A stretch of DNA of 63,408 nt. It comes from Patescibacteria group bacterium UBA3530 (lineage in GTDB: Bacteria; Patescibacteriota; Minisyncoccia; Phycocordibacterales; UBA2100). Positions 40,649 through 57,207 of the stretch are shown here, piece after piece. Positions within the stretch are counted from its first letter, which is position 1. Each line of letters begins with the position of its first letter. Position numbers and translations under genes: made by a program. The stretch is from the NCBI GenBank assembly GCA_002376945.1, contig DFOX01000002.1, positions 31,468 through 94,875 of the forward strand, written 5' to 3'. The notes under the pieces are model-generated. The model saw only the letters and a list, made by a program, of their open reading frames with translations. It ran no database searches and was not told the DNA's origin.

Positions 40649-40658
40649 TAAAATACAT

Positions 40659-40916: not shown

Positions 40917-40918
40917 AG

Positions 40919-41092: not shown

Positions 41093-41129
41093 TACATTAT
41101 TAGTTTATTACGATAATATATAAAATTGT

Positions 41130-41393
41130 ATGAATCATAGTTTAAAGAAAACAGGACATATAGTAGGTGTTTTATTTGTTGCGTTTTTCGCACTCTGCAT
41201 GTTCTGGGGGTTGTTGTTAGTCGACCCTGCCTTAAAAGAATTGCATAGAAACTTGCTGCTTATCGCCTTTCCAGGATTTAGCTTTACGGCAATAGGAATA
41301 GTGATCGGAGCCGCGGAATCATATGCGTACGGATGGTTATTCGGAGCATTGTATGCGTGGTTGTGCAAAGTAACTTGCGCACAAGGAAAATAG
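41130..41393 (+). CDS. small membrane protein, paralogue of 37713..37952
   Basis: Two or three TM helices and a conserved C-terminal AESYAYGWLFGALYAWL. It lies directly upstream (1-nt spacer) of the Cu ATPase. Confidence 0.6.
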   Translation: MNHSLKKTGHIVGVLFVAFFALCMFWGLLLVDPALKELHRNLLLIAFPGFSFTAIGIVIGAAESYAYGWLFGALYAWLCKVTCAQGK

Positions 41394-41394
41394 T

Positions 41395-43455: not shown

Positions 43456-43456
43456 T

Positions 43457-43810
43457 ATGAAAAAGTTTTTCGGAGCATTAATAGTAGGGTTACTTCTAGT
43501 CTCTCCAAGTGTGTCGCTTGCTGATGTGGGGCGTGATCATGGAATGGCTACACCAGAAGAGCATCAAGAAATGGAGGATTTGATGGTGAAAATGATGACG
43601 AATGAAATGAACGAAAAAGAGGCACGAAAAATGATCACACTGATGCAAAACATAGATGGTGGCATGATGGGCATGATGGGCGGTGGTGTACAACACCGTA
43701 AAGGAGTGCTCAATGATTACAACATGATGGGAACGTCTCTTGGCCTTATATGGCTCATTGCAGGAGTGCTACTCATCGCGTGGCTGGCGAGAGAACTTCG
43801 TAAGAAATAA
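43457..43810 (+). CDS. Met/His-rich exported protein with C-terminal TM anchor
   Basis: Signal peptide MKKFFGALIVGLLLVSPSVSLA, then HGMATPEEHQEMEDLMVKMMTNEMNE...GGMMGMMGGG...YNMMG, a C-terminal TM and RELRKK. Confidence 0.65.
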   Translation: MKKFFGALIVGLLLVSPSVSLADVGRDHGMATPEEHQEMEDLMVKMMTNEMNEKEARKMITLMQNIDGGMMGMMGGGVQHRKGVLNDYNMMGTSLGLIWLIAGVLLIAWLARELRKK

Positions 43811-43812
43811 GT

Positions 43813-45279
43813 ATGTTTGCCAAGTACAAAGATGCCATACGCCGAGTAACGGGCGATTACCTCTACACAATCATTGCGGTGAGTTTCGCACTAAACTTAC
43901 TTGCACTCGATTATATATTGTTGAGTCAGGCCACTACATTTCGCATAATGGCTGCACAAAACACCCTGTTTTACAACGCGTCCACGATACTTTTAAGCAT
44001 TATCACAGCGATACTCTTTGGTGTATCAAGTGCAATGGTGGTGTATATACTCAAGCGACGAAAAAGTGTCAAGGAATCGGCACCGAGTACATTTTTCGGA
44101 ACGGTCTTTGCTGCGGTTGCAAGCGGTTGTCCGGTATGTGGAGCGTGGCTACTCCCGCTTCTGGGAATTGCAGGGTCTTTGGCGGCCTTTCCGTTGCAAG
44201 GGCTTGAAATTCGGCTATTGGCAATTGGCCTTTTGATTTTCTCAATTGCACAATCAACCAATATAATATTGGGGTTGTGTAAGGATTCGAAGAAGCATGT
44301 GCAGACTTCGGTGATCGTGATTGTGGCTTTCATTGTCGCACTCTTGTTACTCCCAAATCTTCCTTCTCAGTTTAAAGTGAGGTTTCAGTTGTCAGGTGTC
44401 AGTGTACCCACCGTTACTGCAGGTGCTGACGTGAATGCCATCTATGATCAGGTCAATCCACGAGAAGGGTACGCCATATCTGCGCGCTATGGAAATATCG
44501 GGTATCAACTCGTACAAGCGGGCGTGATTGATTTTGATCGGTTCAGCTTGTTGTACGAGCGATCGGGTACTCCACTGACAAAGGCGCAACTCAAAATCTT
44601 TAGTGAAGAGGGATCAGATGAGAATATTCTCATCAATAGAGAGAATTCATATTTCCTCCTCAACCTTTTCTGGGCATTTGGTCTCGGGAACGATAACCCC
44701 ATATTGACTGAAGGGCAGATTACACAGTATGGAAATGCAAGCATTGGAGATTTTGCCTCCACTGGCGGTTGGACTATTGCTACAAAACCACTTGAAGCGT
44801 ACTACTCAAAATTACCCATGGCGCCACTTAACGATGAACAACAGGCGAGACTCTTGGCGGTTGCTGAAAACACGTATAGACCGTGCTGTGGAAATTCAAC
44901 CGCTTTTCCTGATTGTAATCACGGCATGGCACTACTTGGTGTTTTGGAGTTGATGGCGTACAACAACGCTACGGAAGAAGAAATGTTCGAAGCAGCAAAG
45001 TACTTTAGTGCGTTTTGGTTCCCACAACAAGCAGTGGATGTGGCAACTTTGTTTATGGTAACTGAGGGAAAGGCCTTTAAAGACATTGACGGAAGCATGT
45101 TCTTAAGCGAACAATTTTTCTCAGGACGTGGTTGGAGCCAGGTGCGCGGATGGCTTGAGAGTAATGTGCAAGGAGGTGTCGAATCACAAACACCAAACGG
45201 CGGCGGTTGCGGCGTGGAAAGCGGTGCTCCCGTGCAAAAGCAAGTCATCCCGCAAGGCGGCGGCGGTTGCGGAGTCTAA
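43813..45279 (+). CDS. membrane protein with intramembrane GCPVCG motif and large Cys-motif ectodomain (unknown family)
   Basis: The N-terminal ~190 aa are polytopic (AAVASGCPVCGAWLLPLLGIAG). The C-terminal ~300 aa are soluble, with YRPCCGNSTAFPDCNHGMA. It ends in a duplicated GGGCGV...GGGGCGV. Confidence 0.7.
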   Translation: MFAKYKDAIRRVTGDYLYTIIAVSFALNLLALDYILLSQATTFRIMAAQNTLFYNASTILLSIITAILFGVSSAMVVYILKRRKSVKESAPSTFFGTVFAAVASGCPVCGAWLLPLLGIAGSLAAFPLQGLEIRLLAIGLLIFSIAQSTNIILGLCKDSKKHVQTSVIVIVAFIVALLLLPNLPSQFKVRFQLSGVSVPTVTAGADVNAIYDQVNPREGYAISARYGNIGYQLVQAGVIDFDRFSLLYERSGTPLTKAQLKIFSEEGSDENILINRENSYFLLNLFWAFGLGNDNPILTEGQITQYGNASIGDFASTGGWTIATKPLEAYYSKLPMAPLNDEQQARLLAVAENTYRPCCGNSTAFPDCNHGMALLGVLELMAYNNATEEEMFEAAKYFSAFWFPQQAVDVATLFMVTEGKAFKDIDGSMFLSEQFFSGRGWSQVRGWLESNVQGGVESQTPNGGGCGVESGAPVQKQVIPQGGGGCGV

Positions 45280-45293
45280 CATCAACGTAACAA

Positions 45294-45323
45294 AAGCACT
45301 CCTGGGGTTTGTGGGTGCTTTTT
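45294..45323 (+). terminator. rho-independent terminator ending the csoR-copB operon
   Basis: aagcactc...gggtgctt stem (8 bp including G-U) followed by ttt. Confidence 0.65.
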
Positions 45324-45420
45324 AAATGTAAATTACGCTTTATATTTATCCCCTGTGCAAGATACTGCAAATTCAGCAGGTATGTCATAATTGAAGGAAG
45401 AGGTTACTAGTACATACACT

Positions 45421-46134
45421 ATGAATATGAATGTATCAAAAGGAAATTATGCAATACCAGCTTCTATTGTGATTGCGGGAGCTTTTATCGCACTTGCCAT
45501 ATTCTTCACTGCAGGCAAGAATGCAGTGCAACCGGCACCATCGCAGCCACTGGCAGTCGATACCACTGACCGGATAAATCCGGTGACCGCAGAGGATCAC
45601 ATTCGAGGAAGTATAGACGCGCAGGTTTTTGTGGTGGAGTATTCAGATTTCGAGTGCCCGTTTTGTAAGCGATTTCACCCCACGATGAAGCAAGTGATGG
45701 AAGCGTACGATGCAGACGAAGTTGCGTGGGTATATCGACAATTCCCGCTCGACTCACTTCACCCAGTTAAAGCAAGACGGGAGGCAATCACTTCAGAATG
45801 TGTTGCTGAGCTGGGAGGAAATGATGCTTTTTGGCAATTTACCGACAGGTTCTTTGAGGTCACTCCGTCTAATAATCAAACTGATTTGGATGTAGTGTTA
45901 CCTGAGATTATTGCCGAGATCGGACTTTCGCAAGAAGCGGTGGACGAGTGTGTTGCAAGTGGTAGGTATGACCAACATGTGCAGGATGATGTCGATAATG
46001 CATTTGCAACCGGTGGACAGGGAACGCCCTGGAGCGTGATAATCGGGAAAAATGGAGAAACCTTCCCCCTCTCCGGTGCTCAACCATATACTTCTGTGAC
46101 ACAACTTATCGATATTGCACTCAAGGATAAGTAG
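45421..46134 (+). CDS. DsbA/BdbD-family thiol:disulfide oxidoreductase (CPFC), membrane-anchored
   Basis: N-terminal anchor, then VVEYSDFECPFCKRFHP, and a GTPW cis-Pro-loop-like segment (GGQGTPWSVI). The start is taken at MNMNVSK (45421); ORF-track start 45391 is TTG. Confidence 0.85.
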   Translation: MNMNVSKGNYAIPASIVIAGAFIALAIFFTAGKNAVQPAPSQPLAVDTTDRINPVTAEDHIRGSIDAQVFVVEYSDFECPFCKRFHPTMKQVMEAYDADEVAWVYRQFPLDSLHPVKARREAITSECVAELGGNDAFWQFTDRFFEVTPSNNQTDLDVVLPEIIAEIGLSQEAVDECVASGRYDQHVQDDVDNAFATGGQGTPWSVIIGKNGETFPLSGAQPYTSVTQLIDIALKDK

Positions 46135-46136
46135 GT

Positions 46137-46673
46137 ATGGGCGCACTGCAGAAAGTTTTCGTTCAATGGAAGTATGTGGCTCTTTCTGCCATGGTAGCGA
46201 TTGCGATATTTGCATTTTCTGTATGGCTTCCCAATTGGAAGTTGATTTACACCGTCTTCACTGCACCCTCTGTGAGCTTCTTTGAAGCAATCAGTGTAGT
46301 GCTCGGGTTGTTTTTATCGATTGGCACCAACTTCACCATCGTATCTGCTTCCTATACCATAGTGATTGCCATTTTGTTTGGTGTGAATGTATCACTCCTG
46401 ACCTACTACATTACGCGAAAGAGGGGTGCGTTTGGTACAGGGGGCGTGCTCGGTGCGGGAGGTTTGGTAAGTGGTGTCTTCGGGGTTGGTTGTGCATCGT
46501 GTGGAACATTTATACTCACGTCACTCCTTACCTTTGTCGGTGTCGGAGGACTACTCACCATGCTGCCATTGAAAGGGGAGGAGTTTGGTATATTGGGAGT
46601 TGCACTTATTGGCTACGCGACCTATTGGACAATGAGGAAAATAGAGGAACCGTTATTAGTTTGTGATGTATAA
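46137..46673 (+). CDS. membrane protein with intramembrane GCASCG motif, paralogue of the N-terminal domain of 43813..45279
   Basis: ILFGVNVSLLTYYITRKRG...GVGCASCGTFILTSLLTFVGVGGLLTMLPLKGEE aligns by eye with ILFGVSSAMVVYILKRRKS...ASGCPVCGAWLLPLLGIAGSLAAFPLQGLE. Confidence 0.65.
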   Translation: MGALQKVFVQWKYVALSAMVAIAIFAFSVWLPNWKLIYTVFTAPSVSFFEAISVVLGLFLSIGTNFTIVSASYTIVIAILFGVNVSLLTYYITRKRGAFGTGGVLGAGGLVSGVFGVGCASCGTFILTSLLTFVGVGGLLTMLPLKGEEFGILGVALIGYATYWTMRKIEEPLLVCDV

Positions 46674-47067
46674 AAGTATGAGTAATAGCGTACAACTTAC
46701 CATAGCATCAGTGATACTCGCAGGAGGACTCATTGTTTCAGCCATCGTGCTTACATCAGGAGGACAGAGCACTAAAAAATTCAATGTGGTTATGCAGAAT
46801 AATAGGTACAACCCGTCTGAAATTGTTGTGTCAGTTGGTGATCGGGTTATTATCAATTTTGAAAATAGAGACCCGGTCAGTCACGGTATTGCAATACCGC
46901 AATTCAATGCTACAGTTCCAAATGGACATGTTCCCGCAGGAGGTTCGGCGCGCATGGAGTTTATCGCAGATAGAGCTATCGATACTGATGCGGCAGTGTG
47001 TGGAGGGCCAAACCCGACCGACAAGACTGATGAACATGGAGAAGAGTTTATAGTACGAGTTAGATAA
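46663..47067 (+). CDS. membrane-anchored cupredoxin-like domain protein
   Basis: TM anchor, then NRYNPSEIVVSVGDRVIINFENRDPVSHGIAIPQF...GGSARMEF, a cupredoxin-like beta-sandwich pattern. The alternative start 46678 avoids the 11-nt overlap. Confidence 0.55.
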   Translation: MMYKSMSNSVQLTIASVILAGGLIVSAIVLTSGGQSTKKFNVVMQNNRYNPSEIVVSVGDRVIINFENRDPVSHGIAIPQFNATVPNGHVPAGGSARMEFIADRAIDTDAAVCGGPNPTDKTDEHGEEFIVRVR

Positions 47068-47073
47068 TCAAGT

Positions 47074-47835
47074 ATGAAAAAGAGTATCATCATTGCTTTA
47101 ATTATTATAGGAGGAATTGCATTCTATGCATTCTCTGCCGGTAGCGCAGATCAGGACGATTTTGTGGTTACTGCGGAAACTGATGGTAGTGCAGTTCTCG
47201 TGGAGAGTGTAACTCTAGATGCCCCAGGTTTTGTGGTCATACGAGAAGTAATCAATGATCGACCGGGACAGATAGTGGAGGTGAGCGACCTGCTTCCGGC
47301 GGGACGTAATACCAATGTTACCATTGGTTTAGGAGCCCCGTCCGGGATTGAGGGCATTGACATCGGTGGTGGTTTTCCACTCTTTACCAGTCTCGCTGCT
47401 GTGGTGTATTACGATGATGGAGACGGAGGATTCAATTCTCTGACGGATACGGTGGCGTATGTTAACGGTAATGTACTCGCTGAAGATTTGGGTACCGGTG
47501 AACGTGCACAAGAATCGGCGGTCGTTCCAAATGTACAAGCTGAATCTCTTGAGGGAGAAGTTGCGGTAACGGTTCGGTATACTGATCAGGGTTTCTTGCC
47601 AAAGAGAGTGGAGATACAAGTGGGAGATACGGTGAAGTTTATCAACGAAAGTAGTAGGCCTATGTGGGTTGCGTCTGATGTGCATCCTGCACACACCATT
47701 CTTCCTACCTTTGATCAATTTACCACCTCAGCATACGGGGAGAGTTACTTCTACACATTTCAAGAGGCCGGCGAGTGGCGATACCATGATCACGTAAACG
47801 CAAACGAACTTGGTACGGTCATGGTGAGTGAATAA
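47074..47835 (+). CDS. exported protein with C-terminal Cys-less cupredoxin-like domain
   Basis: Signal anchor. The C-terminus FLPKRVEIQVGDTVKFINESSRPMWVASDVHPAH...GEWRYHDHVNANELGTVMV has His-rich potential ligands but no Cys. Confidence 0.6.
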   Translation: MKKSIIIALIIIGGIAFYAFSAGSADQDDFVVTAETDGSAVLVESVTLDAPGFVVIREVINDRPGQIVEVSDLLPAGRNTNVTIGLGAPSGIEGIDIGGGFPLFTSLAAVVYYDDGDGGFNSLTDTVAYVNGNVLAEDLGTGERAQESAVVPNVQAESLEGEVAVTVRYTDQGFLPKRVEIQVGDTVKFINESSRPMWVASDVHPAHTILPTFDQFTTSAYGESYFYTFQEAGEWRYHDHVNANELGTVMVSE

Positions 47836-47861
47836 ATACATTACAATGTAAACGATATACT

Positions 47862-48386
47862 ATGAATGATAATCAAGAATTAAGTGCAAAGGAGGTGTAC
47901 GACTTAGAGAAAAAACACAAAGAGGAAGCAAAAAGAAAAGAGCATGTATCGCAAAAAAGATCTCGCAACAAAATGAAAATGGGGAAGTATGTAGCGTATA
48001 CGGTAATCACTCTCGGTGTGCTTTGGGGAATTATATGGTTGCTATCGTTGGTGCCCAAACTGCCTCCGATATCGGCGGAGAACCACTCAGAGGATAGTCC
48101 GGTGGCGCATATTTTAACGACACCAATACCAGACAGGATGCAGCGACATATGCTCGAACACGCAGATGGTATCGGGGCACCGGGTGTCATCATTCAATAT
48201 AACTGTGACGATTACGAGTGTGATGCTGATATGGTAGAGAAGCTCGTTGGACTTGTTGGAGAATATCCTAACAACGTATACCTCGCTCCAAATACCTATG
48301 CAGGAAAAATTATTCTCACCAAATTGGGAAAGCGGGAGGTACTTGATGAGTTCAATGAGGAGACCATTCGCAATTTCATTAGATAG
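47862..48386 (+). CDS. membrane-anchored DUF3105-like protein
   Basis: Basic N-terminus, a TM, then HILTTPIPDRMQRHMLEHADGIGAPGVIIQYNCDDYEC...VYLAPNTY, resembling DUF3105 (H..LEHG.V...Y). Confidence 0.5.
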   Translation: MNDNQELSAKEVYDLEKKHKEEAKRKEHVSQKRSRNKMKMGKYVAYTVITLGVLWGIIWLLSLVPKLPPISAENHSEDSPVAHILTTPIPDRMQRHMLEHADGIGAPGVIIQYNCDDYECDADMVEKLVGLVGEYPNNVYLAPNTYAGKIILTKLGKREVLDEFNEETIRNFIR

Positions 48387-48390
48387 TCTG

Positions 48391-48420
48391 CTAAACGGCT
48401 CAGTCCATTGAGCCGTTTAG
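48391..48420. terminator. bidirectional terminator hairpin
   Basis: ctaaacggctca-gtccat-tgagccgtttag, a 12-bp perfect stem. It overlaps the stop of the minus-strand gene 48417..48803. Confidence 0.7.
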
Positions 48421-48803
48421 ATTCTCTCGTAATATACCGATCTGCCCGTTTTTCCCACCTGTCTGATTTTACGATCCTGTTCAAGTTCCTGTAAGTACCG
48501 TGTAGCAGTTGCATCCGAGACGTTAAGGATACTTTCAACGTCATTATTTGTTATGGTATCCATGTTCTCGAAGTGCTTGAGAATATACTCTTTTCGCTTT
48601 GTTTTGCGAGAAGGTCGTTTTGTTGCGTATATGCCAATATATATTCCTATAAGCAGTGCACCGAGTATGATAAGGAAAATCATAGATAAAGTATGCCATA
48701 TGTTTACATTGTACACACTAGGTGTTGTGAAGGTGTTGATTGTTTTGACGTTTACAACGACATTTATTTGGCTCGACGGCATGAGACGCATTAGAACCGC
48801 CAT
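48417..48803 (-). CDS. TM-anchored winged-helix DNA-binding protein (hypothetical)
   Basis: TM MIFLIILGALLIGIYIGIYA, a basic linker, then ITNNDVESILNVSDATATRYLQELEQDRKIRQVGKTGRSVYYE (wHTH). The start is uncertain: 48803, or ATG 48683 directly at the TM. Confidence 0.5.
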   Translation of the reverse strand: MAVLMRLMPSSQINVVVNVKTINTFTTPSVYNVNIWHTLSMIFLIILGALLIGIYIGIYATKRPSRKTKRKEYILKHFENMDTITNNDVESILNVSDATATRYLQELEQDRKIRQVGKTGRSVYYERI

Positions 48804-48929
48804 AGAATGGGACTATTGGGAGATCTCACGCAAGGCACAGGAGCGTGCCGGACTCACGCCGATCATCCCGAGCTACATGCGAGAGGCACGAAGCGACTAA
48901 GTAGCAAGTAACTGCAACAAGTGCGTGTG

Positions 48930-49442
48930 TTACTTCTGGGCACGATGTTTCAATGCCAGCCTGTTTTTGAGAATCAGAAAAATAATACTTATGATCAAAG
49001 CAATGCCTATAGGGGGTGCGATATATAGCACCAGGTTGGCAATGTTGAAAAGAACAGACGCTCCAGTGTTCAAGAACTTAAATAGCCACGGTACGAGATA
49101 GGCATAAGAGACATACATTAAGCCCAGCCAGATCACCGCCTTGATCAGGTTATAGAGTTCCCACATACCGAAGGCTTTAACCACGATGTCGTGCAAGACT
49201 TTATAAAAGCGGAGCACATACAGCAATAAACCTAGTGTTCCAAACGTGAATGCGCTGTAAAATGCACGGATAAAGATACTCGGTTCTGACAAAGGTGCTA
49301 TCTGTTGCCACTGAAATTTCATACCAAGAGCAAAGTGCCAGAGTAATAGCACGAGCGCGAGGATTGCATAGGTCATCCCGCTAGTCGCTATTTCTTTAGC
49401 GTGTTTTAACAATACTCTTTTGTGCCAACTGTCTGTTCTCAT
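48930..49442 (-). CDS. 4-TM membrane protein (unknown family), second gene of a two-gene cassette
   Basis: Four long hydrophobic helices. The start overlaps the stop of the upstream gene by 4 nt (ATGA). Confidence 0.6.
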   Translation of the reverse strand: MRTDSWHKRVLLKHAKEIATSGMTYAILALVLLLWHFALGMKFQWQQIAPLSEPSIFIRAFYSAFTFGTLGLLLYVLRFYKVLHDIVVKAFGMWELYNLIKAVIWLGLMYVSYAYLVPWLFKFLNTGASVLFNIANLVLYIAPPIGIALIISIIFLILKNRLALKHRAQK

Positions 49443-50413
49443 GATTCTTTTTTCTTAGTTATCTTACTGAGCTCTTGAATCAGATTCTCCTGCGTTTCGT
49501 AAGTATTCAGAAGACCTTTGGTGGCTTTATTCTTCCGGAACTGCAACACAGTATCAACGAAGTTATCTGCGATAGTGATCTTCTGATCAACAAAACGCTG
49601 ATAGTAGTCTTCTGCATGCTTGGGCATGATTACTTCAAAAAAGTTCTTGAGTGGATCACCGGTCCAATACTCGTCTTCGATCCCTTCGATATAGTCCTTC
49701 GTGAGGTATTCAAACTGGCCGGAGTATCGCAACTCTCTCATAAAGCCCTCTGCAGGGATGACTGCCGCGTCGACCAGCTTTTTAGCGCTCTTCGGTACGT
49801 ACGTTTTATAGAGATTCAATCCCAGAACTGAGGTGCCTTTGAACATCGGAAACAAAATACCCGATATCTTTCTAGCCACCACTACGGGTAGTCGTTTTCT
49901 ACGCTGTGTCTCTTGTAAGAAGGCAAACAATTCTTCATTGGGGAGTACCCACTGACCATTCTTAATAAGAAAAGAAATCGGAATCTTGTCGAATGTACCG
50001 TCTACAACAAAAGGGTCCTGGGAGGTTACTTTAAGATCACTGACATAAGTAGAGAGAACTTTTAAAATCAGCTTTCTAGTAGCTTCCGTATCCTGATTAT
50101 CTCTGAGGTACTCATCAATCTTCTTTTTCTTCTCTCCAAGCTCAATAATTTCAGAGATATTTTCATACGGGGAAGTAGAGAGAAGGTCATCATCTTGGAT
50201 AAGTAGTGGGATGTGTCGTGGATCAAAACGGCGATCACCCGGGCCAGTCTCACAGAGTAGATACTCAAGTTCTCGCATGGTCACTATCTTTTTGTCACGC
50301 AAAACCTTCTCAAGTCGTGAGTCAAAATAAAGTTGCAACTCTTCCGCTGTCAAAGCAGCCAAATAGTATTTATTGAGCTTTGCCTTCACTTGTTCTAGAG
50401 GGGATTTCTTCAT
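49439..50413 (-). CDS. 324-aa soluble protein of unknown family
   Basis: A long uninterrupted ORF in an AT-rich island. The start is taken at MKKSPLEQ (50413) because ORF-track start 50449 falls inside palindrome 50422-50447. I recognise no catalytic or family motif. Confidence 0.7.
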   Translation of the reverse strand: MKKSPLEQVKAKLNKYYLAALTAEELQLYFDSRLEKVLRDKKIVTMRELEYLLCETGPGDRRFDPRHIPLLIQDDDLLSTSPYENISEIIELGEKKKKIDEYLRDNQDTEATRKLILKVLSTYVSDLKVTSQDPFVVDGTFDKIPISFLIKNGQWVLPNEELFAFLQETQRRKRLPVVVARKISGILFPMFKGTSVLGLNLYKTYVPKSAKKLVDAAVIPAEGFMRELRYSGQFEYLTKDYIEGIEDEYWTGDPLKNFFEVIMPKHAEDYYQRFVDQKITIADNFVDTVLQFRKNKATKGLLNTYETQENLIQELSKITKKKES

Positions 50414-50421
50414 AGTTAAAA

Positions 50422-50447
50422 GCCTACTTATAATATTATAAGTAGGC
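50422..50447. promoter_or_regulatory. 26-bp perfect palindrome (operator 1) with embedded TATAAT on both strands
   Basis: gcctacttataat|attataagtaggc shares the 16-bp core CTTATAATATTATAAG with 50464-50487. Confidence 0.7.
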
Positions 50448-50463
50448 AAATAGCAACATGATG

Positions 50464-50487
50464 ATGTCTTATAATATTATAAGACAT
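50464..50487. promoter_or_regulatory. 24-bp perfect palindrome (operator 2) with embedded TATAAT
   Basis: atgtcttataat|attataagacat has the same 16-bp core as operator 1, with 16 bp between the two palindromes. Confidence 0.7.
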
Positions 50488-50590
50488 GTACTAGATACGC
50501 CCATTTCCCCATTATCTCTATTTGTTTGATTCTCTAAAATATGCTATATTGTTACTGGAAAGGGACTTAAATACCCTTTCTAGACTAAAA

Positions 50591-51193
50591 ATGGATAAAA
50601 TACCAACAAAAGGAGAATTTTTAGAGGTCTTATTGAGATCTTCCAAAACGGTCTTTTCTACGAAAGACGCTGCTTTGTTGTGGAATGAAGATGATAGTTC
50701 TGTTGTCACTGATCGATTAAAGCGATATGTGAAGGCTGGAAAGTTGATTCGAGTACGTCGTGGCTTGTATGCAAAAGACAAGAACTACGATCGTTTCGAG
50801 TTAGCAACCAGAATCTATACGCCTTCCTATGTAAGTTTTGAGACTGTTTTAACTCGTGAAGGGGTCAGCTTCCAATATTACGGAAATATATTTATTGCCT
50901 CATATGTAAATCGCGAAATCACCATTGGAGACCAGAAGATTACTTTTATCCGCATGAAAGATTATGTCTTGAGTAATACAGCCGGCATTGAAAGCAAAGC
51001 CGGCTACTCAATCGCAACAAAGGAACGTGCATTTTTGGATCGTATCTACGTGAGCAAAGACTATCATTTTGATAATTTAGCGAGTTTGGATTGGGATAAG
51101 GTTTTTAAAATCGCGCCTATCTATCACAACAAGCGATTGGAGAAGAAAGTAAAAGAATACTTCAAAGCCCATAATAAAGAAAAAACCGTATGA
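50591..51193 (+). CDS. abiEi: AbiEi-family antitoxin / transcriptional regulator (type IV TA)
   Basis: N-terminal wHTH with the characteristic KLIRVRRGLYA motif. It overlaps by 4 nt (ATGA) with the downstream AbiEii-like nucleotidyltransferase. The start is taken at MDKIPTKGEF. Confidence 0.75.
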   Translation: MDKIPTKGEFLEVLLRSSKTVFSTKDAALLWNEDDSSVVTDRLKRYVKAGKLIRVRRGLYAKDKNYDRFELATRIYTPSYVSFETVLTREGVSFQYYGNIFIASYVNREITIGDQKITFIRMKDYVLSNTAGIESKAGYSIATKERAFLDRIYVSKDYHFDNLASLDWDKVFKIAPIYHNKRLEKKVKEYFKAHNKEKTV

Positions 51194-51885
51194 CCTTAGA
51201 CTATTCAAAACATAAAAATATCCTGTTGCAGATATTGAAAGATATCTACTCTGATACCTCCATTGCCCCCTGCCTCGGGTTTAAAGGTGGTACTGCGGCA
51301 CTTATGTTTTATGACTTGCCGCGTAATTCAGTAGACTTGGATTTTGATTTGCTGGACGAATCAAAGGAGGATGAGGTGTTTGAAAAGGTCAGCAACATTG
51401 TTAAAGAATACGGCACAGTACTCGACTCTCATATCAAGAGATTCAACCTGCTCCACGTCGTATCCTATGACCCGAAAGCGCAGAATATAAAGGTTGAGAT
51501 CAATCGCAGACAATTCGGCTCACGGTACGAGATGAAAACATTATTGGGTATCTCAATGCTCGTCATGGTCCAAGAAGATATGTTTGCTCACAAGTTGATG
51601 GCAATGTATGAACGCATCGGCAAGACAAGCCGGGATGTGTTTGACGTTAATTACTTTGCTAAAAGCAACTGGTCGATTAATCGAGAGATTGTTGAGCAGC
51701 GTTCAGGGATGTCCTTCAAAGAAACGTTGGAGAAATGCATCGAAATGCTCGAAAAGATGGATAACAAGCACATCTTGGATGGCTTGGGCGAATTGTTGTC
51801 TGATTCTCAAAAAGACTCTGCCCGAGCAAAGCTCAAGTCAGACACGATCTTCCAATTGAAAGTCATGCTCGACAATGAAAAGTGA
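51190..51885 (+). CDS. abiEii: AbiEii/AbiGii-family nucleotidyltransferase toxin (DUF1814)
   Basis: LGFKGGTAALMFYDLPRNSVDLDFDL matches the KGGTAL...R.S.DLDF NTase motif of the family. Confidence 0.8.
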   Translation: MTLDYSKHKNILLQILKDIYSDTSIAPCLGFKGGTAALMFYDLPRNSVDLDFDLLDESKEDEVFEKVSNIVKEYGTVLDSHIKRFNLLHVVSYDPKAQNIKVEINRRQFGSRYEMKTLLGISMLVMVQEDMFAHKLMAMYERIGKTSRDVFDVNYFAKSNWSINREIVEQRSGMSFKETLEKCIEMLEKMDNKHILDGLGELLSDSQKDSARAKLKSDTIFQLKVMLDNEK

Positions 51886-51886
51886 T

Positions 51887-53041
51887 ATGGCAAACAGTAA
51901 CCTAGCAAAAGCTAAATTAGTAAAGAATGACGAGTTTTATACTCAGTACATTGATATTCAGAAAGAAATAGAATCTTATCTTGAGTACGATCCTGATACT
52001 TTCAAAAATAAAACAATCTACAGTAACTGTGATGATCCATATGAAAGCAACTTTTTCCGTTACTTCGTTCTGAATTTCAATAGACTTGGCCTGAAACGGC
52101 TTATCACCACTAGCTACAAACCCTCACCAGTTGCAAACACTCAAATCGGTCTGTTCGGCGATGATGTCACCCTAGAGCCAGTCAAAGGGCGACCGAAAAT
52201 AACGGCAAATAAGTTTATTATAAATGAGGTTGGTGATGTTGATGGTGATGGTTCCTTTTCTCTTGAAGATATCGCCTTACAGCTTAAGGCCAACAAAAAT
52301 AATGAATGGCATCCCCTAAAGGAAGACGGTGACTTTCGTAGCGCAGAATGTGTAGAGTTATTAAAAGAAGCTGATGTGGTTGTAACGAACCCTCCTTTTT
52401 CTCTTTTTCGTGAGTATGTTGCACAACTCATGGAGTATAAAAAGCGATTTTTGATTATCGGCAATCAAAACTCAATTACTTTAAAGGAGATTTTTCCGCT
52501 AGTTAAAGATAACAAAGTATGGTTTGGATGTAAGAAAGTCAAAGAATTTTGTAAGCCCGACGGCTCAATTCAAAAGTTTGGAAATGTCGGATGGTTTACC
52601 AATCTTGATCATGGTCGCCGGCACCAACCACTTAGTTTGATGACCATGCGTGATAATAGGAAGTTTAATAAAAAACTTGAAGAAAAACAGGCATACGAGA
52701 AATATGATAATTTTGACGCAATTGAAGTTCCTTTCGTCGATGCTATTCCTAGTGATTATGATGGTGTTATGGGGGTCCCCGTTTCATTTCTAGACAGGTA
52801 CAATCCTGATCAATTCGAAATTTTAGGGCTCACCAAAACTTGGTTTGGTGCTGCTACTAAAATTTATCCTGAGCAAATACAGGTTAGTAAAGATAATAAA
52901 AAAAGTAAGGTAACGAAATTAAACGATGGTGCCGTTTTGAAAATTAAAGAGCCACCAGAAAATAAAACGTATTACATTGTAAAAGAAAAACTCTATAGAC
53001 AGACATTCCCGCGATTATTAGTTAAGCAAAAGAAAAAATAG
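51887..53041 (+). CDS. M.EcoRI-family N6-adenine DNA methyltransferase
   Basis: N-terminal KNDEFYTQYIDIQKE...SNCDDPYESNFFRYFVLNF and catalytic VVTNPPFSLFREY, as I recall for M.EcoRI (PF13651-like). The alternative ATG 51875 overlaps abiEii. Confidence 0.85.
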   Translation: MANSNLAKAKLVKNDEFYTQYIDIQKEIESYLEYDPDTFKNKTIYSNCDDPYESNFFRYFVLNFNRLGLKRLITTSYKPSPVANTQIGLFGDDVTLEPVKGRPKITANKFIINEVGDVDGDGSFSLEDIALQLKANKNNEWHPLKEDGDFRSAECVELLKEADVVVTNPPFSLFREYVAQLMEYKKRFLIIGNQNSITLKEIFPLVKDNKVWFGCKKVKEFCKPDGSIQKFGNVGWFTNLDHGRRHQPLSLMTMRDNRKFNKKLEEKQAYEKYDNFDAIEVPFVDAIPSDYDGVMGVPVSFLDRYNPDQFEILGLTKTWFGAATKIYPEQIQVSKDNKKSKVTKLNDGAVLKIKEPPENKTYYIVKEKLYRQTFPRLLVKQKKK

Positions 53042-53044
53042 ACC

Positions 53045-54208
53045 ATGAAAACAACTCTAAAAAATGACATCACTATCAAAGAAGTTTGCGACGGCTTCGT
53101 CTACAACGAGCTGGAAGGTAAAGGGTTGTTTGGCTTATCCGGAAAATTAACTATTCAGCCGGAGTACCAGCGAAACTACATTTACGCTGACGGTAAAAAA
53201 GATGTTGCAGTGATTGATTCAATTTTGAAAGGTTACCCAATCGGTTTAATTTATTTCAACCAGGTTGGTAAAGATAAGTTTGAGGTACTTGATGGCCAAC
53301 AGCGCATCACCAGTATAGGTCGATTTGTGACCGGCAAGTTTGCTGTAAAAGATAAGAACGGCCATGAGCAATATTACAGTGGCATGGCCGACAGTCAGCG
53401 CAAACAGATATTAAACACTAAATTGTTGGTGTATATATGCGAGGGCGACGAGCCAGAGATCAAGGATTGGTTCAAGACTATTAATATCGCTGGGGTGCCG
53501 CTAACCGAGCAAGAAATTTTAAACGCCGTCTATTCGGGACCTTTTGTTACGAAAGCACGTGAGGAGTTTAGTAACAGTCAGAACGCCAACGTGCAAAAAT
53601 GGAGCGCTTACATCGCTGGTGACTTGAAACGTCAAGCTTACCTTGAGCGAGCTTTAGACTGGGTGTCTGGTGGCGCTATAGACAACTACATGAGCAAACA
53701 TCGTAACGATAAGGATATTACAGAGCTAAAGAACCACTTTGATAAAGTCATTGACTGGGTATCCAAAACATTCACAGATGTTGAGAGTGAGATGAGAGGA
53801 TTGGAATGGAATCGTCTCTATGAGACATATCACAAGAAAAAATATGATCCTAAGAAAGTAGCCACTGCAGTGCAACGGCTCTATGGTGATGCATACGTAA
53901 AGAACCGCAAAGGAATCTTTGAGTACGTCTTAGGTGGTGAAGTTGACACAAAGCTCCTGGACGTGCGTGTTTTCGATGACGCAACCAAGCGTTCAGTGTA
54001 CGAAGCTCAAACCGCAACAGCAAAGAAAAAGGGTAAATCAAATTGTCCGCTTTGTGCCGTTGGGCATGATGCCAACAAAGAGAAGATCTGGAGTCTGGGT
54101 GACATGGATGCCGACCACGTTGCAGCATGGAGTAAGGGAGGTGCAACGGATGTAAAGAATTGCCAGATGTTGTGTAAGACACACAACAGGGCGAAGGGTA
54201 ATCGGTAA
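53045..54208 (+). CDS. DUF262 (ParB/GmrS-like) domain fused to an HNH nuclease
   Basis: N-terminal PEYQRNYIY...[12 protein letters not shown]...[11 protein letters not shown] (DUF262). C-terminal CPLCAVG...[32 protein letters not shown] (HNH, beta-beta-alpha-Me). Confidence 0.85.
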
Positions 54209-54215
54209 ATAAGAT

Positions 54216-55466
54216 ATGAAAAAGAATGCAAAAAAAGATACAGAAAATAATGCTGGCGCCACTGAAGAATCGTTGGTCCGAGTCTTAATCTCAGGTGCAG
54301 GAAATATTAATATCGAAAAAGAATCTGATGAGAGTTTTAAGGTTGTCGTTGATAAATCCCTGCAAATTGAAGACAAAACCTTTACTGCACTTGAAGAAGC
54401 AAAAAAGCATGCAAATACTTTGCTTTACAAGCAACTGGGAAGAAAGTTTGAAAAATCAATCAGATCTGAAAATCTTGTTTTGCTAACTGGAGCGGGTGCA
54501 TCAATGGAATGCGGTGGGCCATCTATGTTGGGGTTGTGGAAAATCGTGAGTGAGGACACGTCAATTACAACCGACTGGAGCAGTCTATTGACATCGGCAG
54601 GATATGCACCCGAGATAGGTAAAGAAAATCTTGAGGATCTTTTGTCTCGCTTACAAACGCTGACGCGCGCCCACAAGATAAACAGCAGTGGAACTGATTT
54701 TGAAAATGTAATCGAAAAGATAGAAGCCAAAATTCTTGAGGAGTGTAAGAAGGTTCAAATTGGAGACAACTCCTCACACATTCGCTTCATCTCGCGCATT
54801 CTCAAAGGAAGAAGTGCATCGAGTCCGCGTCTTAAAGTTTTTACTTTAAATTATGATACTGCCTTTGAACAGACAGGCGATAAGATCAAAGCTGTTGTTC
54901 TGGACGGTTTTCTTCTCTCAAAAAACTTCAAGAGCGTAGAGTTTGATTTGGATATTGTACAGCGTGAACGTTCTCGTATTCATAATGAAGAAAACTTTTA
55001 TAGTAAGGTTTTTCAACTATATAAAATGCACGGTTCAGTTGACTGGGACTCAAGTGGCGAAGTCATTCAAAAAAATGAAACACCCACTAAGCCCACTTTG
55101 ATATATCCTAATTCGTCTAAGTTTGAAAGGAGTTTTGAAATGCCGTTTTTTGAAATGGTCTCGAGGTTACAAAGTGTCTTACGAAAAGAAAATACTACCC
55201 TTTTTGTCGTTGGTTACGGTTTTGGTGATGAGCATGTAAATAGAATTATCGGAGAAGCTCTGAAAAACAATCTGAATCTAGAAATATTTATCGTTAAGCC
55301 AAATCTTCAAGACATTAGTTTGCATAACTATATTGAGAAAATTGAAAAAGGCTCCATGAATATCCATTTGATAGGCAATACCTTTGATGAACTATCAACA
55401 GGAGTCCCCGATGTAAAAATCGGAGAACATTTGTTAGAAGAGGAAAAAAATGAAAAACCCATTTGA
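54216..55466 (+). CDS. SIR2-family (SIR2_2) NADase-like defence protein
   Basis: LVLLTGAGASMECGGPSMLGLW, FTLNYDTAFEQ, LYKMHGSVDW and VVGYGFGDEHVN are SIR2_2-type motifs. It is paired with HerA downstream. Confidence 0.8.
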   Translation: MKKNAKKDTENNAGATEESLVRVLISGAGNINIEKESDESFKVVVDKSLQIEDKTFTALEEAKKHANTLLYKQLGRKFEKSIRSENLVLLTGAGASMECGGPSMLGLWKIVSEDTSITTDWSSLLTSAGYAPEIGKENLEDLLSRLQTLTRAHKINSSGTDFENVIEKIEAKILEECKKVQIGDNSSHIRFISRILKGRSASSPRLKVFTLNYDTAFEQTGDKIKAVVLDGFLLSKNFKSVEFDLDIVQRERSRIHNEENFYSKVFQLYKMHGSVDWDSSGEVIQKNETPTKPTLIYPNSSKFERSFEMPFFEMVSRLQSVLRKENTTLFVVGYGFGDEHVNRIIGEALKNNLNLEIFIVKPNLQDISLHNYIEKIEKGSMNIHLIGNTFDELSTGVPDVKIGEHLLEEEKNEKPI

Positions 55467-57207
55467 TCACAATAAGTTTATCGGATATGTGTCGCGTGTC
55501 ACTCCAGAGCTTACACGGGTACATTTTCCTAACTCAAATCTTCTTAAGAAGTTTTATTTTGATGGTGATGTTCTTCATAGTGGCATCGTTAGAAACTATG
55601 TAATCATTGAGGGTGAAGGATATGGATTTTTAGGTCGTATTGTGAGAGTAGAACTCCCAGAAAAAGAGAGGCTCTTCTTAAGCGAAGCGGCGTTTCAACG
55701 ACAAGATGGCAACTTCCACCCAACAAGTGAAGTAGAAATTCAGCTAGCCTTCAGTATCTTCGGAGAGATAAAAGCAAAAAAAGGACTTGATCAGTACCCT
55801 CCAATCGGCTCGCGAGTGTATGCATGTTCCCCTGAGTATTTGGAGCTGTTCTTGAAAGATTTTGGGAAAGACGAAAGTGGAGAAGTTGAGGACGATTTGT
55901 TAGAAATTGCTACGCTTCCACAAGATCAAGGATATCCGATAAAAATATCTGCAAACTCATTATTCAGTCGACACTGTGCTGTCGTTGGAACTACTGGTGG
56001 AGGTAAAAGTTACACGGTAGCAAAGCTAATAGAAGAAATGATTAGGAAAGAAAAGCCGATTAAAATACTTCTACTTGACTCTACTGGAGAATACAAATCA
56101 ATTTCGGAAGAAGATAGCTGTGAGACAGCGACACTGGGCGTTGGGGGAAATACCTTTGTACATCATAAAGACCTCACGGAGTCTGATCTGTTTGCTCTTT
56201 TTAGACCTGCCGGACAGGTCCAGATGCCAATTTTACAGAATGCAATAAAGAGTTTGAAACTGGCAAGAATTCTGGAAAATAAAAAGATAGCCGATGCTAC
56301 TTTTCAAGTTCCCGCCTACTGCCAAAATGGTAATATCAAAAAAGCTGGCAACGCTATTGGTGATTATGACACTCTTCTTCAAGAGCACGCGAGCAAAATA
56401 AATTCAGAGAAAGCGGACTTTGACATAGAAAAACTGCCCGTTCAGATTGAAAACGAGTGTATCTTCCCTACAGATAGATATGATTTGACTAAATGGGGTG
56501 GTGTATCGGACAGCGCACTAACCAACGCATCAAGTCTCATTGTGAGAGTGAAATCGCGTATAAATAATAATGACTTCGCTTTTGCTTTTGGTCTGACAAG
56601 TGAAGCGAGACAAGATAAGGAATCGTTTGAGAAAATTTTCAACACCTTTTATGGTGGTGACAAAAAAATACTTCGTATTGATATAAGCAACATAGGTTTT
56701 GAAGAAAATCTTCGAGAGGTGTTGGTCAACAGTCTGGGAAGATATTTTCTGAATAGATTTCAGGACGATTCTGGAAGTTTTCGTACTATGCCTGTCATTT
56801 TTATAGTGGATGAGGCACATCAATTATTCAGGGTTGAAAAAATTAAAGACGAATACTCTAACGAATTCAAATTAGATGCCTTTGAGCGTATTGCCAAGGA
56901 AACGCGAAAGAAGGGATTGTTTTTGTGTCTAGCCACTCAAAGACCTCGTGACATACCGCACGGCGTTTTAAGTCAGATGGGAGCCTTTATTGCTCACCGC
57001 TTGATAAATCCTCTAGATCGCGAAGCAATAATGTCTGCTTCACCGGAGGGATCAAAATACTTGCTGTCCTTTCTTCCGTCTCTAGGACAAGGCGAGGCCC
57101 TGCTTCTTGGGGTTGATTTTCCAATGCCAGTTAATTTAAGGATCAAAACAGTATCAGAGCAGTTTAGACCAGATTCCGACACACCGAAGTTATTCAAAAG
57201 GGCATGA
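55450..57207 (+). CDS. HerA/FtsK-like hexameric ATPase (DUF87)
   Basis: HAS-barrel-like N-terminus (IGYVSRVTPELTRVHF), Walker A VGTTGGGKSYT, Walker B IFIVDEAHQLF, and LATQRPRDIPHGVLSQMGAFIAHRL. It overlaps the SIR2 gene by 17 nt. Confidence 0.88.
   Translation: MKNPFDHNKFIGYVSRVTPELTRVHFPNSNLLKKFYFDGDVLHSGIVRNYVIIEGEGYGFLGRIVRVELPEKERLFLSEAAFQRQDGNFHPTSEVEIQLAFSIFGEIKAKKGLDQYPPIGSRVYACSPEYLELFLKDFGKDESGEVEDDLLEIATLPQDQGYPIKISANSLFSRHCAVVGTTGGGKSYTVAKLIEEMIRKEKPIKILLLDSTGEYKSISEEDSCETATLGVGGNTFVHHKDLTESDLFALFRPAGQVQMPILQNAIKSLKLARILENKKIADATFQVPAYCQNGNIKKAGNAIGDYDTLLQEHASKINSEKADFDIEKLPVQIENECIFPTDRYDLTKWGGVSDSALTNASSLIVRVKSRINNNDFAFAFGLTSEARQDKESFEKIFNTFYGGDKKILRIDISNIGFEENLREVLVNSLGRYFLNRFQDDSGSFRTMPVIFIVDEAHQLFRVEKIKDEYSNEFKLDAFERIAKETRKKGLFLCLATQRPRDIPHGVLSQMGAFIAHRLINPLDREAIMSASPEGSKYLLSFLPSLGQGEALLLGVDFPMPVNLRIKTVSEQFRPDSDTPKLFKRA

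Follow-up and report, generated by a model that had tools for sequence, protein, structure and literature searches.

Two neighboring genes on the minus strand, one encoding a soluble protein of 324 amino acids (X324) and the other a membrane protein of 170 amino acids (TM170), appear to be independent modules that are merely juxtaposed at this locus, where X324 would bind palindromes of its own, either as a regulator or as a structure-specific binder. We favor this reading tentatively, with a confidence that falls somewhat short of even. The genes lie in a window of 63,408 nucleotides (the whole stretch of DNA that was analyzed) from a Patescibacteria group bacterium. The original prediction had presented the pair as one defense cassette composed of two undescribed proteins. 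The cassette did not survive the check for conserved pairing, and the novelty of its parts did: both proteins belong to families without a Pfam, NCBIfam, PADLOC, PHROGs, or PDB sequence match. The predicted defense-gene neighborhood was also recovered, since both families are found almost only beside defense genes, and all X324 and TM170 contexts examined hold AbiE, restriction-modification (RM), SIR2-HerA, KAP NTPase, PIN-TPR-GreABC, PDC-S39, or similar genes. The genomes of Patescibacteria (CPR) are tiny, but their defense islands are dense and rapidly shuffled, and this locus offers two recurrent, uncatalogued building blocks, namely, X324 with its cis element, and TM170. If X324 proved to regulate by sensing structure, or if TM170 were an effector in common use, these would be new parts for the catalogue of defense systems.

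The X324 gene (positions 49439-50413, 324 aa from its ATG) and the TM170 gene (48930-49442) were called as open reading frames (ORFs) on the minus strand and overlap by 4 nt (ATGA, 49439-49442), which bears out the arrangement first described. An alternative TTG start at 50449 would extend X324 to 336 aa; the ATG is favored because the homologues all begin with MKK. On the plus strand, the divergent AbiE pair consists of the AbiEi antitoxin/repressor (50591-51193; PADLOC PDLC02255, 1e-57; Pfam AbiEi_4) and the AbiEii nucleotidyltransferase toxin (51190-51885; Pfam AbiEii, 3e-15; PADLOC PDLC02324, 3e-77). The ATG of AbiEi at 50591 agrees with its homologues in a tblastn map, the mechanical ORF call beginning at a TTG at 50522. 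Pfam and PADLOC found every defense neighbor that had been named: AbiEi/AbiEii, an EcoRI-like methyltransferase, a GmrSD_N(DUF262)-HNH protein, and SIR2-HerA. The gene pair had also been placed inside an AT-rich island, and here the description has to be amended, as the AT-rich stretch spans 50-59 kb (GC content 0.37-0.43), whereas 49-50 kb has a GC content of 0.438 and the left flank one of 0.44-0.47. The closest relative, a Saccharibacteria MAG (L001), has in common with the window a block at 48763-54216 (blastn, 76-89% DNA identity) that contains TM170, X324, the palindromes, AbiEi, AbiEii, the methyltransferase, and the GmrSD_N-HNH gene, with different flanks on both sides. As for the ORF at 48417-48803, described earlier as a membrane-anchored winged-helix (wHTH) gene that might belong to the unit, its single transmembrane (TM) segment was found and its wHTH matches were weak and sub-threshold; we rejected it as a member of the unit, as it is missing from L001 and falls outside the shared block.

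Of the 40 dereplicated X324 lineages whose downstream sequence was long enough, 2 have TM170 directly 3' of X324. These two lineages are the window and L001 and, being 89% identical, they represent one evolutionary event. The idea of a dedicated two-gene abortive-infection system, in which X324 would be the cytosolic sensor and TM170 the membrane effector, is thus highly improbable, even though the ATGA overlap couples the genes translationally, both families are uncharacterized and defense-associated, and the pair is kept in L001, the dN/dS values against this relative (0.11 for X324 and 0.13 for TM170) indicating purifying selection on both genes. Besides the single pairing event, TM170 is coupled just as tightly to unrelated proteins, and at locus L010 it stands at the far end of an AbiE array, away from X324. 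The two proteins are also unequally conserved, with identities beyond the closest relatives of 64-91% for TM170 and 39-53% for X324, which argues against their co-evolution. What recurs beside X324 is the AbiE pair, in divergent orientation, rather than TM170.

TM170 contains three clear and one or two weaker hydrophobic segments, which fits about four TM helices and agrees with its initial description as a small four-helix membrane protein. Its homologues form at least 157 clusters, with a mean column identity of 74% and 45 invariant columns, and TM170 gave no match in Pfam, PADLOC (E <= 0.1), NCBIfam, PHROGs, a PDB sequence-profile search, or an IMG/VR scan. Among eight contexts, selected by the length of their contigs, TM170 is the last gene in at least seven unrelated defense operons of Patescibacteria, where it is preceded by EMARD_N/PDC-S39, DUF2254 plus two genes, PIN-TPR-GreABC, AbiEii with an AAA_15 ATPase, Mrr_cat, or a KAP-NTPase with a 195-aa protein, and is joined to these unrelated upstream genes by an ATGA overlap or a gap of 3-8 nt. 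Small TM effectors are known from CBASS, retron, and Thoeris-type abortive-infection systems. TM170 resembles them in being multi-TM and the last, tightly coupled gene of defense operons, but it is one nearly invariant family with at least seven unrelated partners and is not system-specific. We infer that TM170 is an independent module rather than a dedicated effector of X324. More weakly, its distribution hints at a self-contained membrane module, which might be a generic effector or exclusion protein, or else a backbone gene of the islands.

X324 is accompanied by a cis element of its own. The twin palindromes noted in the original prediction are indeed present 5' of the gene, both of them perfect. 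The proximal one (GCCTACTTATAAT/ATTATAAGTAGGC, 50422-50447, 26 nt) stops 8 nt short of the X324 ATG, and the distal one (ATGTCTTATAAT/ATTATAAGACAT, 50464-50487, 24 nt) has the same 12-bp core with other self-complementary arms. Both contain CTTATAATATTATAAG, at a spacing of 41 nt, and chance alone would be expected to give no such match in the window. Across 758 kb, the core TATAATATTATA occurred 131 times, in each case within 200 nt 5' of X324, and the X324 loci examined carry two or three perfect palindromes of 20-48 bp directly 5' of the start codon. We rejected the palindromes as boundaries of the cassette or island, since the core is confined to the stretch 5' of X324. They had further been read as a control region common to X324 and AbiE. 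This did not hold, as the palindromes travel with X324, and AbiE has its own leader inverted repeat on the plus strand (CTGGAAAGGG-N9-CCCTTTCTAG, 50555-50583), located just before the AbiEi ATG and conserved in other loci with compensatory changes. A role as AbiEi operators was likewise discarded, because the palindromes persist at X324 loci devoid of canonical AbiE (L020, L024, and L066), and AbiE keeps its different repeat where the palindromes are missing; an AbiE locus 83% identical and without X324 retains the leader repeat and lacks the TATAATATTATA core. Twin palindromes were looked for and not found upstream of the plasmid-borne distant relatives of X324, and a literature search on the core sequence returned nothing relevant.

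The composition of these sites is unusual. Their 12-bp center (TATAAT/ATTATA) is invariant, and this dyad is kept in X324 homologues down to 27% identity, whereas the arms differ from site to site and yet stay exactly self-complementary. Six positions flanking the core vary while remaining Watson-Crick complementary; positions 7-11 from the center include all four pair types with 95-99% complementarity, and background is reached from position 13. The arm covariation score was 0.659, compared to 0.130 +/- 0.018 for shuffles (0 of 500 reached 0.659) and 0.04-0.16 for slid controls, and the same covariation test revealed no one-sided (wobble, G:U-type) changes in the arms. The DNA fold had an energy of -15.5 kcal/mol (z = -6.05). 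An invariant 12-bp dyad with stem-like covarying arms is a signature rarely seen among ordinary operators.

Could the palindromes be mere promoter, 5'-UTR, or terminator hairpins, with the role of X324 lying elsewhere, for example, in ligand or protein binding? The core does amount to two TATAAT -10 hexamers placed back to back, the score of the proximal palindrome with its subsequent T run is terminator-like, and an invariant loop of X324 (E-T-G-P-G..R..DP) could bind something other than DNA. Nevertheless, we consider this quite improbable, as an Rfam scan of 48300-50700 gave no match at E <= 1, the absence of G:U-type intermediates is unusual for RNA stems, and a dyad that is invariant over such divergence exceeds what a promoter needs. 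No convincing -35/-10 promoter could be assigned at the locus.

The 324-aa protein had been described as lacking any catalytic or family motif. With regard to family, this stands: X324 has no match in Pfam, PADLOC, NCBIfam, or PHROGs, nothing in PADLOC-DB v2 at E <= 0.1, and none in a PDB sequence-profile search, and its homologues form 46 clusters, none of them named or bearing a Pfam domain. Scans of Pfam, PADLOC, NCBIfam, and PHROGs that included at least ten distant relatives together with X324 and TM170 gave nothing usable. The protein is not unrecognizable, though, because its AlphaFold2 model, Foldseek, and distant homologues point to a degenerate PD-(D/E)xK core. X324 is a soluble protein, devoid of hydrophobic segments, and is predicted to comprise an N-terminal helical domain, a central PD-(D/E)xK-like alpha/beta domain, and a C-terminal helical domain (pLDDT 92.8, pTM 0.89). 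Foldseek matched the model locally to EndoMS/NucS (prob 0.87-0.89), and also to FokI, Cap4, and VC1899, as well as to viral 'restriction endonuclease' models (prob 0.96-0.99). These nuclease-fold matches are weak, with E-values from 1e-3 to 0.5 and low global TM-scores, so that the assignment of the fold depends largely on aligning X324 with distant homologues (15-20% identity), whose 'hDhhh...hhExKN..W.YP' aligns with 'FLIKNGxWxxP' in X324. In this alignment, the catalytic E is replaced by L/I and the D is absent ('FLIKNG' versus 'IExKN'), and no invariant acidic residue is found in the central domain among the homologues. Together, the model and the alignments support a putative PD-(D/E)xK nuclease fold that has lost its catalytic residues.

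X324 can be compared on this basis with enzymes of the PD-(D/E)xK fold, such as Mrr, NucS/EndoMS, and the FokI cleavage domain. Its central alpha/beta domain matches them locally, its distant homologues keep the canonical hD...ExK in the aligned strands, and, as for type II enzymes, there is an association with palindromic sites; it differs by an extra conserved N-terminal domain and by having no fixed partner methyltransferase. The invariant N-terminal motif E-T-G-P-G..R..DP is the most conserved feature of the whole superfamily. A Foldseek search with the model of the N-terminal domain returned no significant match (best E = 2), and winged-helix proteins were found only among the weak ones. 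X324 did not match, in Pfam, the Mrr_N winged helix and Mrr_cat domains of an Mrr-like type IV enzyme, nor HTH_3 or Xre. A rolling-circle Rep of the HUH type was rejected, as no histidine is invariant among the homologues.

We infer that X324 binds its own palindromes. Probably dimeric, like its nuclease ancestors, it would do so without cutting, and its target could be either duplex operators over the -10-like TATAAT hexamers or extruded hairpins or cruciforms. In either target form, bound X324 would control its own transcription unit, which, judging by layout, would run from X324 to TM170 in the window, and in other genomes from X324 through small genes and a replication-like wHTH gene to a large serine recombinase. 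A plain dimeric operator leaves unexplained why the arms should have to be self-complementary and yet differ between the two sites of one locus. RM controller (C) proteins, which are Xre-type HTH proteins of ~80 aa with paired palindromic C-boxes, offer a similar arrangement in one respect: X324 likewise has two adjacent palindromes just upstream of its own gene, at the head of a defense or mobile cluster. It differs in its 324 aa and its nuclease-like fold, and its sites are longer than C-boxes, their invariant core consists solely of A and T, and their arms show the covariation of a hairpin stem. A conserved apex on a variable stem is also seen in certain hairpin DNA elements, including CRESS/geminivirus origins (with their TAATATTAC loop), integron attC sites, and N4 hairpin promoters. 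The X324 palindromes are similar to these in their invariant center, compensating arms, and strict complementarity at the DNA level, and their core contains TAATATTA; however, X324 carries neither HUH nor tyrosine-recombinase motifs, and its palindromes are not at cassette boundaries.

A bolder version can be imagined, in which X324 and its twin hairpin-forming palindromes would make up a hitherto unrecognized protein-DNA switch operated by a dead nuclease that reads an extruded cruciform or hairpin, TM170 being a universal plug-in membrane module that is added in Patescibacteria to the 3' end of defense operons with nothing else in common. In such a switch, X324 might sense supercoiling, the entry of single-stranded DNA, or phage-induced DNA stress, and might activate the genes that it heads, possibly with the divergent AbiE-led array or genes for island mobilization. 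We regard the combination as rather improbable.

Structure-specific binding could also serve a purpose other than the regulation of transcription, with X324 and its palindromes forming a DNA-transaction module of mobile islands, in which the protein would mark an origin or a site of transfer or recombination. The strict Watson-Crick covariation of the arms, free of wobble, fits DNA hairpins or cruciforms, and the structural neighbors of X324 include nucleases of branched or mismatched DNA, e.g., NucS/EndoMS. Genomic context adds to this. In 9 of 20 lineages, X324 heads a same-strand run that contains wHTH or AAA_25 genes of replication-like type and has a large serine recombinase as its last gene. 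Moreover, near-identical X324 proteins face different AbiE subtypes, which implies a recombination junction at or near the palindromes, and distant relatives of X324 occur on small plasmids, adjoining resolvases and relaxases. Against such a module, X324 is without catalytic residues, and the palindromes are located solely 5' of X324, never at the boundaries of an island or cassette. In the window, L001, and L018, the 10 kb downstream of X324 are free of recombinase genes, and X324 itself had no match in tblastn searches of phage and plasmid collections or in an IMG/VR scan. On balance, we see this reading as unlikely.

The remaining partner to be considered is AbiE. X324 is divergent from AbiEi in 30 of 36 lineages, and from AbiEi plus AbiEii in 26 of 30. 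This divergent arrangement is constant, the genes being separated by ~170-180 bp, and holds for X324 identities from 27% to 100% and for at least three AbiE subtypes as well as an AbiE-like pair (HTH plus NTase-like). Locus L018 is even reduced to X324, AbiEi, and AbiEii, with no cargo and no recombinase. X324 could accordingly be imagined as a functional accessory of AbiE-type systems, such as a third component that senses phage or modulates the pair. Yet the AbiEii subfamily, with at least 7,928 clusters versus 46 for X324, is more than 100-fold commoner, AbiE occurs without X324 with its leader intact, each side has a separate cis element, and L024 combines X324 and palindromes with no AbiE at all. 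Co-occurrence with the AbiE pair is not obligate (about 26/30 for AbiE given X324), and the abundance of AbiE in these islands may account for part of this high value. AbiE retains a leader repeat of its own and is mostly found in the absence of X324, so we take X324 to be an accessory neighbor and not an AbiE subunit, and we judge a functional role in AbiE to be distinctly unlikely. A literature search on three-gene AbiE variants returned nothing relevant.

Independent juxtaposition, our preferred reading, still leaves an instructive parallel between the two divergent units. The AbiEi antitoxin of this type IV toxin-antitoxin system is known to control its own expression via inverted repeats in the promoter (PMC7319586), much as X324 would through its own upstream palindromes. 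The resemblance stops there: X324 is dissimilar to AbiEi and AbiEii, with no match to either in Pfam or PADLOC although the neighboring genes match strongly, and it lies outside the bicistronic operon. The survey of these loci also shows that AbiE pairs serve as the common 5' leader of variable defense arrays in Patescibacteria.

Two minus-strand ORFs were found as originally predicted, namely, X324 (49439-50413), encoding a soluble protein of 324 aa counted from its ATG, and TM170 (48930-49442), encoding a membrane protein of 170 aa, joined by an ATGA stop/start overlap. An alternative TTG start at 50449 would extend X324 to 336 aa, and the ATG at 50413 is favored because the homologues all begin with MKK. 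X324 contains no hydrophobic segment; TM170 has three that are clear and one or two that are weaker. In comparison with the closest relative, both genes evolve under purifying selection, with dN/dS values of 0.11 for X324 and 0.13 for TM170, and neither product matched a model in Pfam, PADLOC, NCBIfam, or PHROGs, or a PDB sequence. The neighbors were also identified correctly (AbiEi/AbiEii, an EcoRI-type methyltransferase, a GmrSD_N(DUF262)-HNH enzyme, and SIR2-HerA), and the view of the two proteins as novel and defense-associated holds. The location of the pair in AT-rich DNA was not borne out, as its GC content is 0.438 and the AT-rich stretch spans 50-59 kb. Neither X324 and its twin, covarying palindromes nor the near-invariant and promiscuous TM170 has been catalogued, and their functions are inferred.

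The two genes had been proposed to form a dedicated cassette. We collected 75 X324 loci, which collapsed to 46 lineages at 95% identity; the homologues, 307-331 aa long with 39-89% identity, form 46 clusters from Saccharibacteria, Falkowbacteria, Buchananbacteria, Paceibacterota, and a small number of other bins, all unnamed and without Pfam domains. Of the 40 lineages with sufficient sequence downstream, only 2 have TM170 directly 3' of X324, namely, the window and a relative with 89% identity to it, the Saccharibacteria MAG L001; elsewhere, TM170 ends operons of unrelated proteins. These results show that X324 is not tied to TM170, and a two-gene abortive-infection (Abi) model uniting them is disfavored, as the co-occurrence data speak against it.

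TM170 itself is represented by at least 157 clusters sharing 64-91% identity, with a mean column identity of 74% and 45 invariant columns in the alignment. It is the final gene, tightly coupled by an ATGA overlap or a 3-8-nt gap, after an EMARD_N/PADLOC PDC-S39 protein, DUF2254 with two unknown genes, a 1183-aa PIN-TPR-GreABC protein, an Mrr_cat protein, or a KAP NTPase with a 195-aa protein. At locus L010, TM170 follows an AAA_15 ATPase and closes an AbiE array that faces X324 with its opposite end. The DNA 5' of TM170 shows no conservation between these contexts. The most plausible reading of TM170 is that of an autonomous membrane module added at operon 3' ends, serving perhaps as a generic effector, as an exclusion protein, or as an island backbone gene. 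Genes encoding LexA_DNA_bind/Peptidase_S24/DNA methyltransferase fusions, which look like an SOS-type controller joined to a methylase, adjoin TM170-ending defense arrays, either divergently (L027-L029, L085), in the place held elsewhere by X324, or downstream (L025).

X324 was found to be usually back-to-back with an AbiE-led defense array. Where 700 nt or more of upstream sequence is available (36 lineages), 30 have a divergent AbiEi gene beside X324; where 1.5 kb or more is available (30 lineages), 26 have both AbiEi and AbiEii. The X324-AbiEi intergenic distance is ~170-180 bp. The AbiE partners belong to at least three subtypes, namely, the window type, the L010/L014 type (26-28% identity to the former), and the L073 type (PDLC02267/02304); at L020 and L066, an HTH protein and an NTase-like protein stand in AbiE's stead, the L066 protein being a weak AbiEii match. 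AbiE pairs of different subtypes lie opposite near-identical X324 proteins (P0005 group and P0009), indicating that the module junction has recombined, and the genes 3' of AbiEii vary as well (MTase with GmrSD-HNH, type I or type III-like RM, KAP NTPase, AAA_15 ATPase, SIR2-HerA). The linkage is one-way: the window's AbiEii subfamily comprises at least 7,928 clusters, including more than 120 with identities of 77% or above, from many Patescibacteria, and X324 is missing from a Nomurabacteria locus whose AbiEii is 83% identical to that of the window. This abundance of AbiE without X324, together with the separate cis elements of the two, disfavors X324 as a third subunit of AbiE.

Across Patescibacteria, a highly conserved AbiEi-AbiEii pair forms the constant 5' leader of variable defense arrays (window 50591-57207; L001-L019 and L092-L097), with RM types I/II/III, GmrSD-HNH, KAP NTPase, AAA_15 ATPase, and SIR2-HerA as cargo. 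The start of the first cargo gene overlaps with, or lies right next to, the AbiEii stop (51875 versus 51885 in the window). At L002-L005 (7313-8507), two separate ORFs (193 and 167 aa) make up the EcoRI-like methyltransferase next to an intact GmrSD_N-HNH gene, a split that could represent a frameshift or a phase variant. L020 and L021 are the same sequence, assigned to Elusimicrobia in one bin and to Nanoarchaeota in the other, and carry a frameshifted X324; their divergent pair of HTH (356 aa) and 298-aa proteins has its own, different twin palindromes, two copies of TATATTCCTATATAGGAATATA 66 nt apart.

Between X324 and AbiEi lie two perfect palindromes sharing CTTATAATATTATAAG, one proximal (50422-50447) and one distal (50464-50487), where chance would provide none. 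In 758 kb of X324 loci, we counted 131 copies of the core TATAATATTATA, its two one-mismatch variants included, all 131 of them within 200 nt 5' of X324, and the sites are kept where AbiE is replaced (L020, L066) or missing (L024, with DUF3800 upstream). The core was not found in AbiE loci without X324, which keep the AbiE-proximal leader ATATGCTA..ATTGTTACTGGAAAGGG-N-CCCTTTCCAGT..ATGGATA (50540-50593 in the window). The intergenic region therefore consists of two separate modules, and the palindromes, originally predicted to be a control region shared with AbiE, belong to X324, which is inseparable from this special palindromic element at its own 5' end. The AbiE leader carries an inverted repeat, ATATGCTATATTGTTACTGGAAAGGG-N9-CCCTTTCTAG (50555-50564/50574-50583), just 5' of the AbiEi ATG at 50591; its stem shows compensatory changes between loci, and it is probably an AbiEi operator or a 5'-UTR hairpin. 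AbiEi is known to autoregulate via promoter inverted repeats (PMC7319586), a precedent for the neighboring AbiE module that leaves the X324 sites unexplained.

We then profiled 82 unique palindrome sites, counting positions outward from the dyad. Positions 1-6 are invariant, save for an A:A variant at position 3; positions 7-11 accept all four base-pair types, yet remain 95-99% Watson-Crick complementary. Complementarity is 74% at position 12 and at background from position 13 onward (20-60% by position, mostly 24-40%), with some arms reaching 22-24 nt (L073, L081). The covariation score of 47 sites was 0.659, compared to 0.130 ± 0.018 for shuffles (0 of 500 reached 0.659) and 0.04-0.16 for slid controls, with no one-sided (wobble) change in the arms of this set. 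Since the arms differ between the two sites of one locus, they are not read as sequence; what the sites preserve is an exact dyad symmetry, or DNA-level pairing within a strand. When folded as single-stranded DNA, the region forms two hairpins (-15.5 kcal/mol, z = -6.05), and it had no Rfam match. These sites are hard to square with just a promoter hairpin, given that the 12-bp invariant dyad is retained in homologues down to 27% identity.

The AlphaFold2 model of X324, built with 44 homologues (pLDDT 92.8, pTM 0.89), has a central alpha/beta domain (~125-240), preceded by a helical N-terminal domain (1-120) and followed by C-terminal helices. Foldseek returned no match with E <1e-3; the weak local matches to the central domain were thematically uniform, including EndoMS/NucS (probability 0.87-0.89, 90-110 columns), VC1899, FokI, Cap4, and HamA in the PDB and "restriction endonuclease" models in BFVD (probability 0.96-0.99). 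An exhaustive profile search yielded 118 representative clusters, in which distant relatives of 330-400 aa have region 130-215 in common with X324. Nine of these align with the canonical PD-(D/E)xK signature hDhhh ... hhExKN..W.YP, while the X324 clade reads FLIKNGxWxxP at the aligned site, with E changed to L/I, the conserved Asp absent, and no invariant acidic residue in the central domain. From model and alignment, X324 is predicted to be a catalytically degenerate member of a nuclease-fold family. G57, R62, and W155 are invariant throughout the superfamily, and R33, E55, P65, and P158 nearly so; the N-terminal loop E-T-G-P-G..R..DP is therefore taken to be central to function. Modeled separately (pLDDT 87.8), the N-terminal domain had no significant structural neighbor, winged-helix proteins appearing only as weak matches.

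The distant relatives, all annotated "hypothetical protein", reside near resolvases and relaxases on small plasmids of Acidiphilium, Acidithiobacillus, and Mycobacteroides abscessus, where the twin palindromes were not found. Loci L082-L084 (e.g., NZ_CP041721.1, NZ_CP065281.1, NZ_AP022580.1) hold relatives of the distant members with intact D...ExK, likewise "hypothetical proteins", on plasmids of 22-35 kb from Acidiphilium, Mycobacteroides abscessus, and Mycolicibacterium, with small serine recombinases and MobF relaxases nearby. According to the PLSDB table, ~1 kb of unannotated DNA lies upstream in two of these three loci (L082, L083).

In 9 of 20 lineages, X324 is followed on its own strand by a series of small genes, a replication-like wHTH gene or AAA_25 protein, and a large serine recombinase. 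A role of X324 in a DNA transaction, with the palindromes as origin or recombination site, fits these recombinase-containing operons and the DNA-level covariation, but X324 lacks catalytic residues and the palindromic element has no boundary copies. We rather propose that X324 would bind the palindromes without cleavage, the invariant 12-bp dyad being suited to a dimer of nuclease ancestry. As the dyad consists of two back-to-back TATAAT hexamers whose distance to the start codon is 5-25 nt, such binding would regulate the X324 transcription unit. Judging from its stem-like arms, the element may also act, or be recognized, as an extruded hairpin or cruciform.

The block common to the window and L001 (48763-54216) runs from TM170 to GmrSD-HNH at 76-89% DNA identity, and beyond either edge the two sequences are unrelated. 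In this comparison, only the window has SIR2-HerA, and in L001 an additional SDH-protease gene separates AbiEii from the methyltransferase. The window end truncates a large serine recombinase (fragment 62453-63406) that shares 65% identity with its L002 counterpart, and a replication-like wHTH ORF (59609-60145) upstream of this fragment has 46% identity to a 146-aa L002 protein. Relative to these two genes, the X324-AbiE-cargo block is inverted compared to L002. The TM-anchored wHTH ORF (48417-48803, minus strand) lies outside the L001-shared block, is not in L001, and has no homologue in any fetched locus; as the left edge of the block (~48770) falls inside its first 40 codons, its start is probably Met 48683 (88 aa). 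Inside the block, a plus-strand 39-codon ORF, MRRIRTAIEWDYWEISRKAQERAGLTPIIPSYMREARSD (48781-48900), converges on TM170; it has 66% aa identity in L001, occurs nowhere else among the fetched loci, and may not be a gene. A full-length XseA (exonuclease VII large subunit; 57204-58598, Pfam 7e-64), overlapping the HerA stop codon by 4 nt, is either a host gene bordering the island or recruited cargo. The left flank (39626-48386) holds a copper/thiol-disulfide cluster of P-type ATPase, DsbD-like, DsbA-like, cupredoxin-domain, and DUF3105-like proteins, which is host context unconnected with the island.
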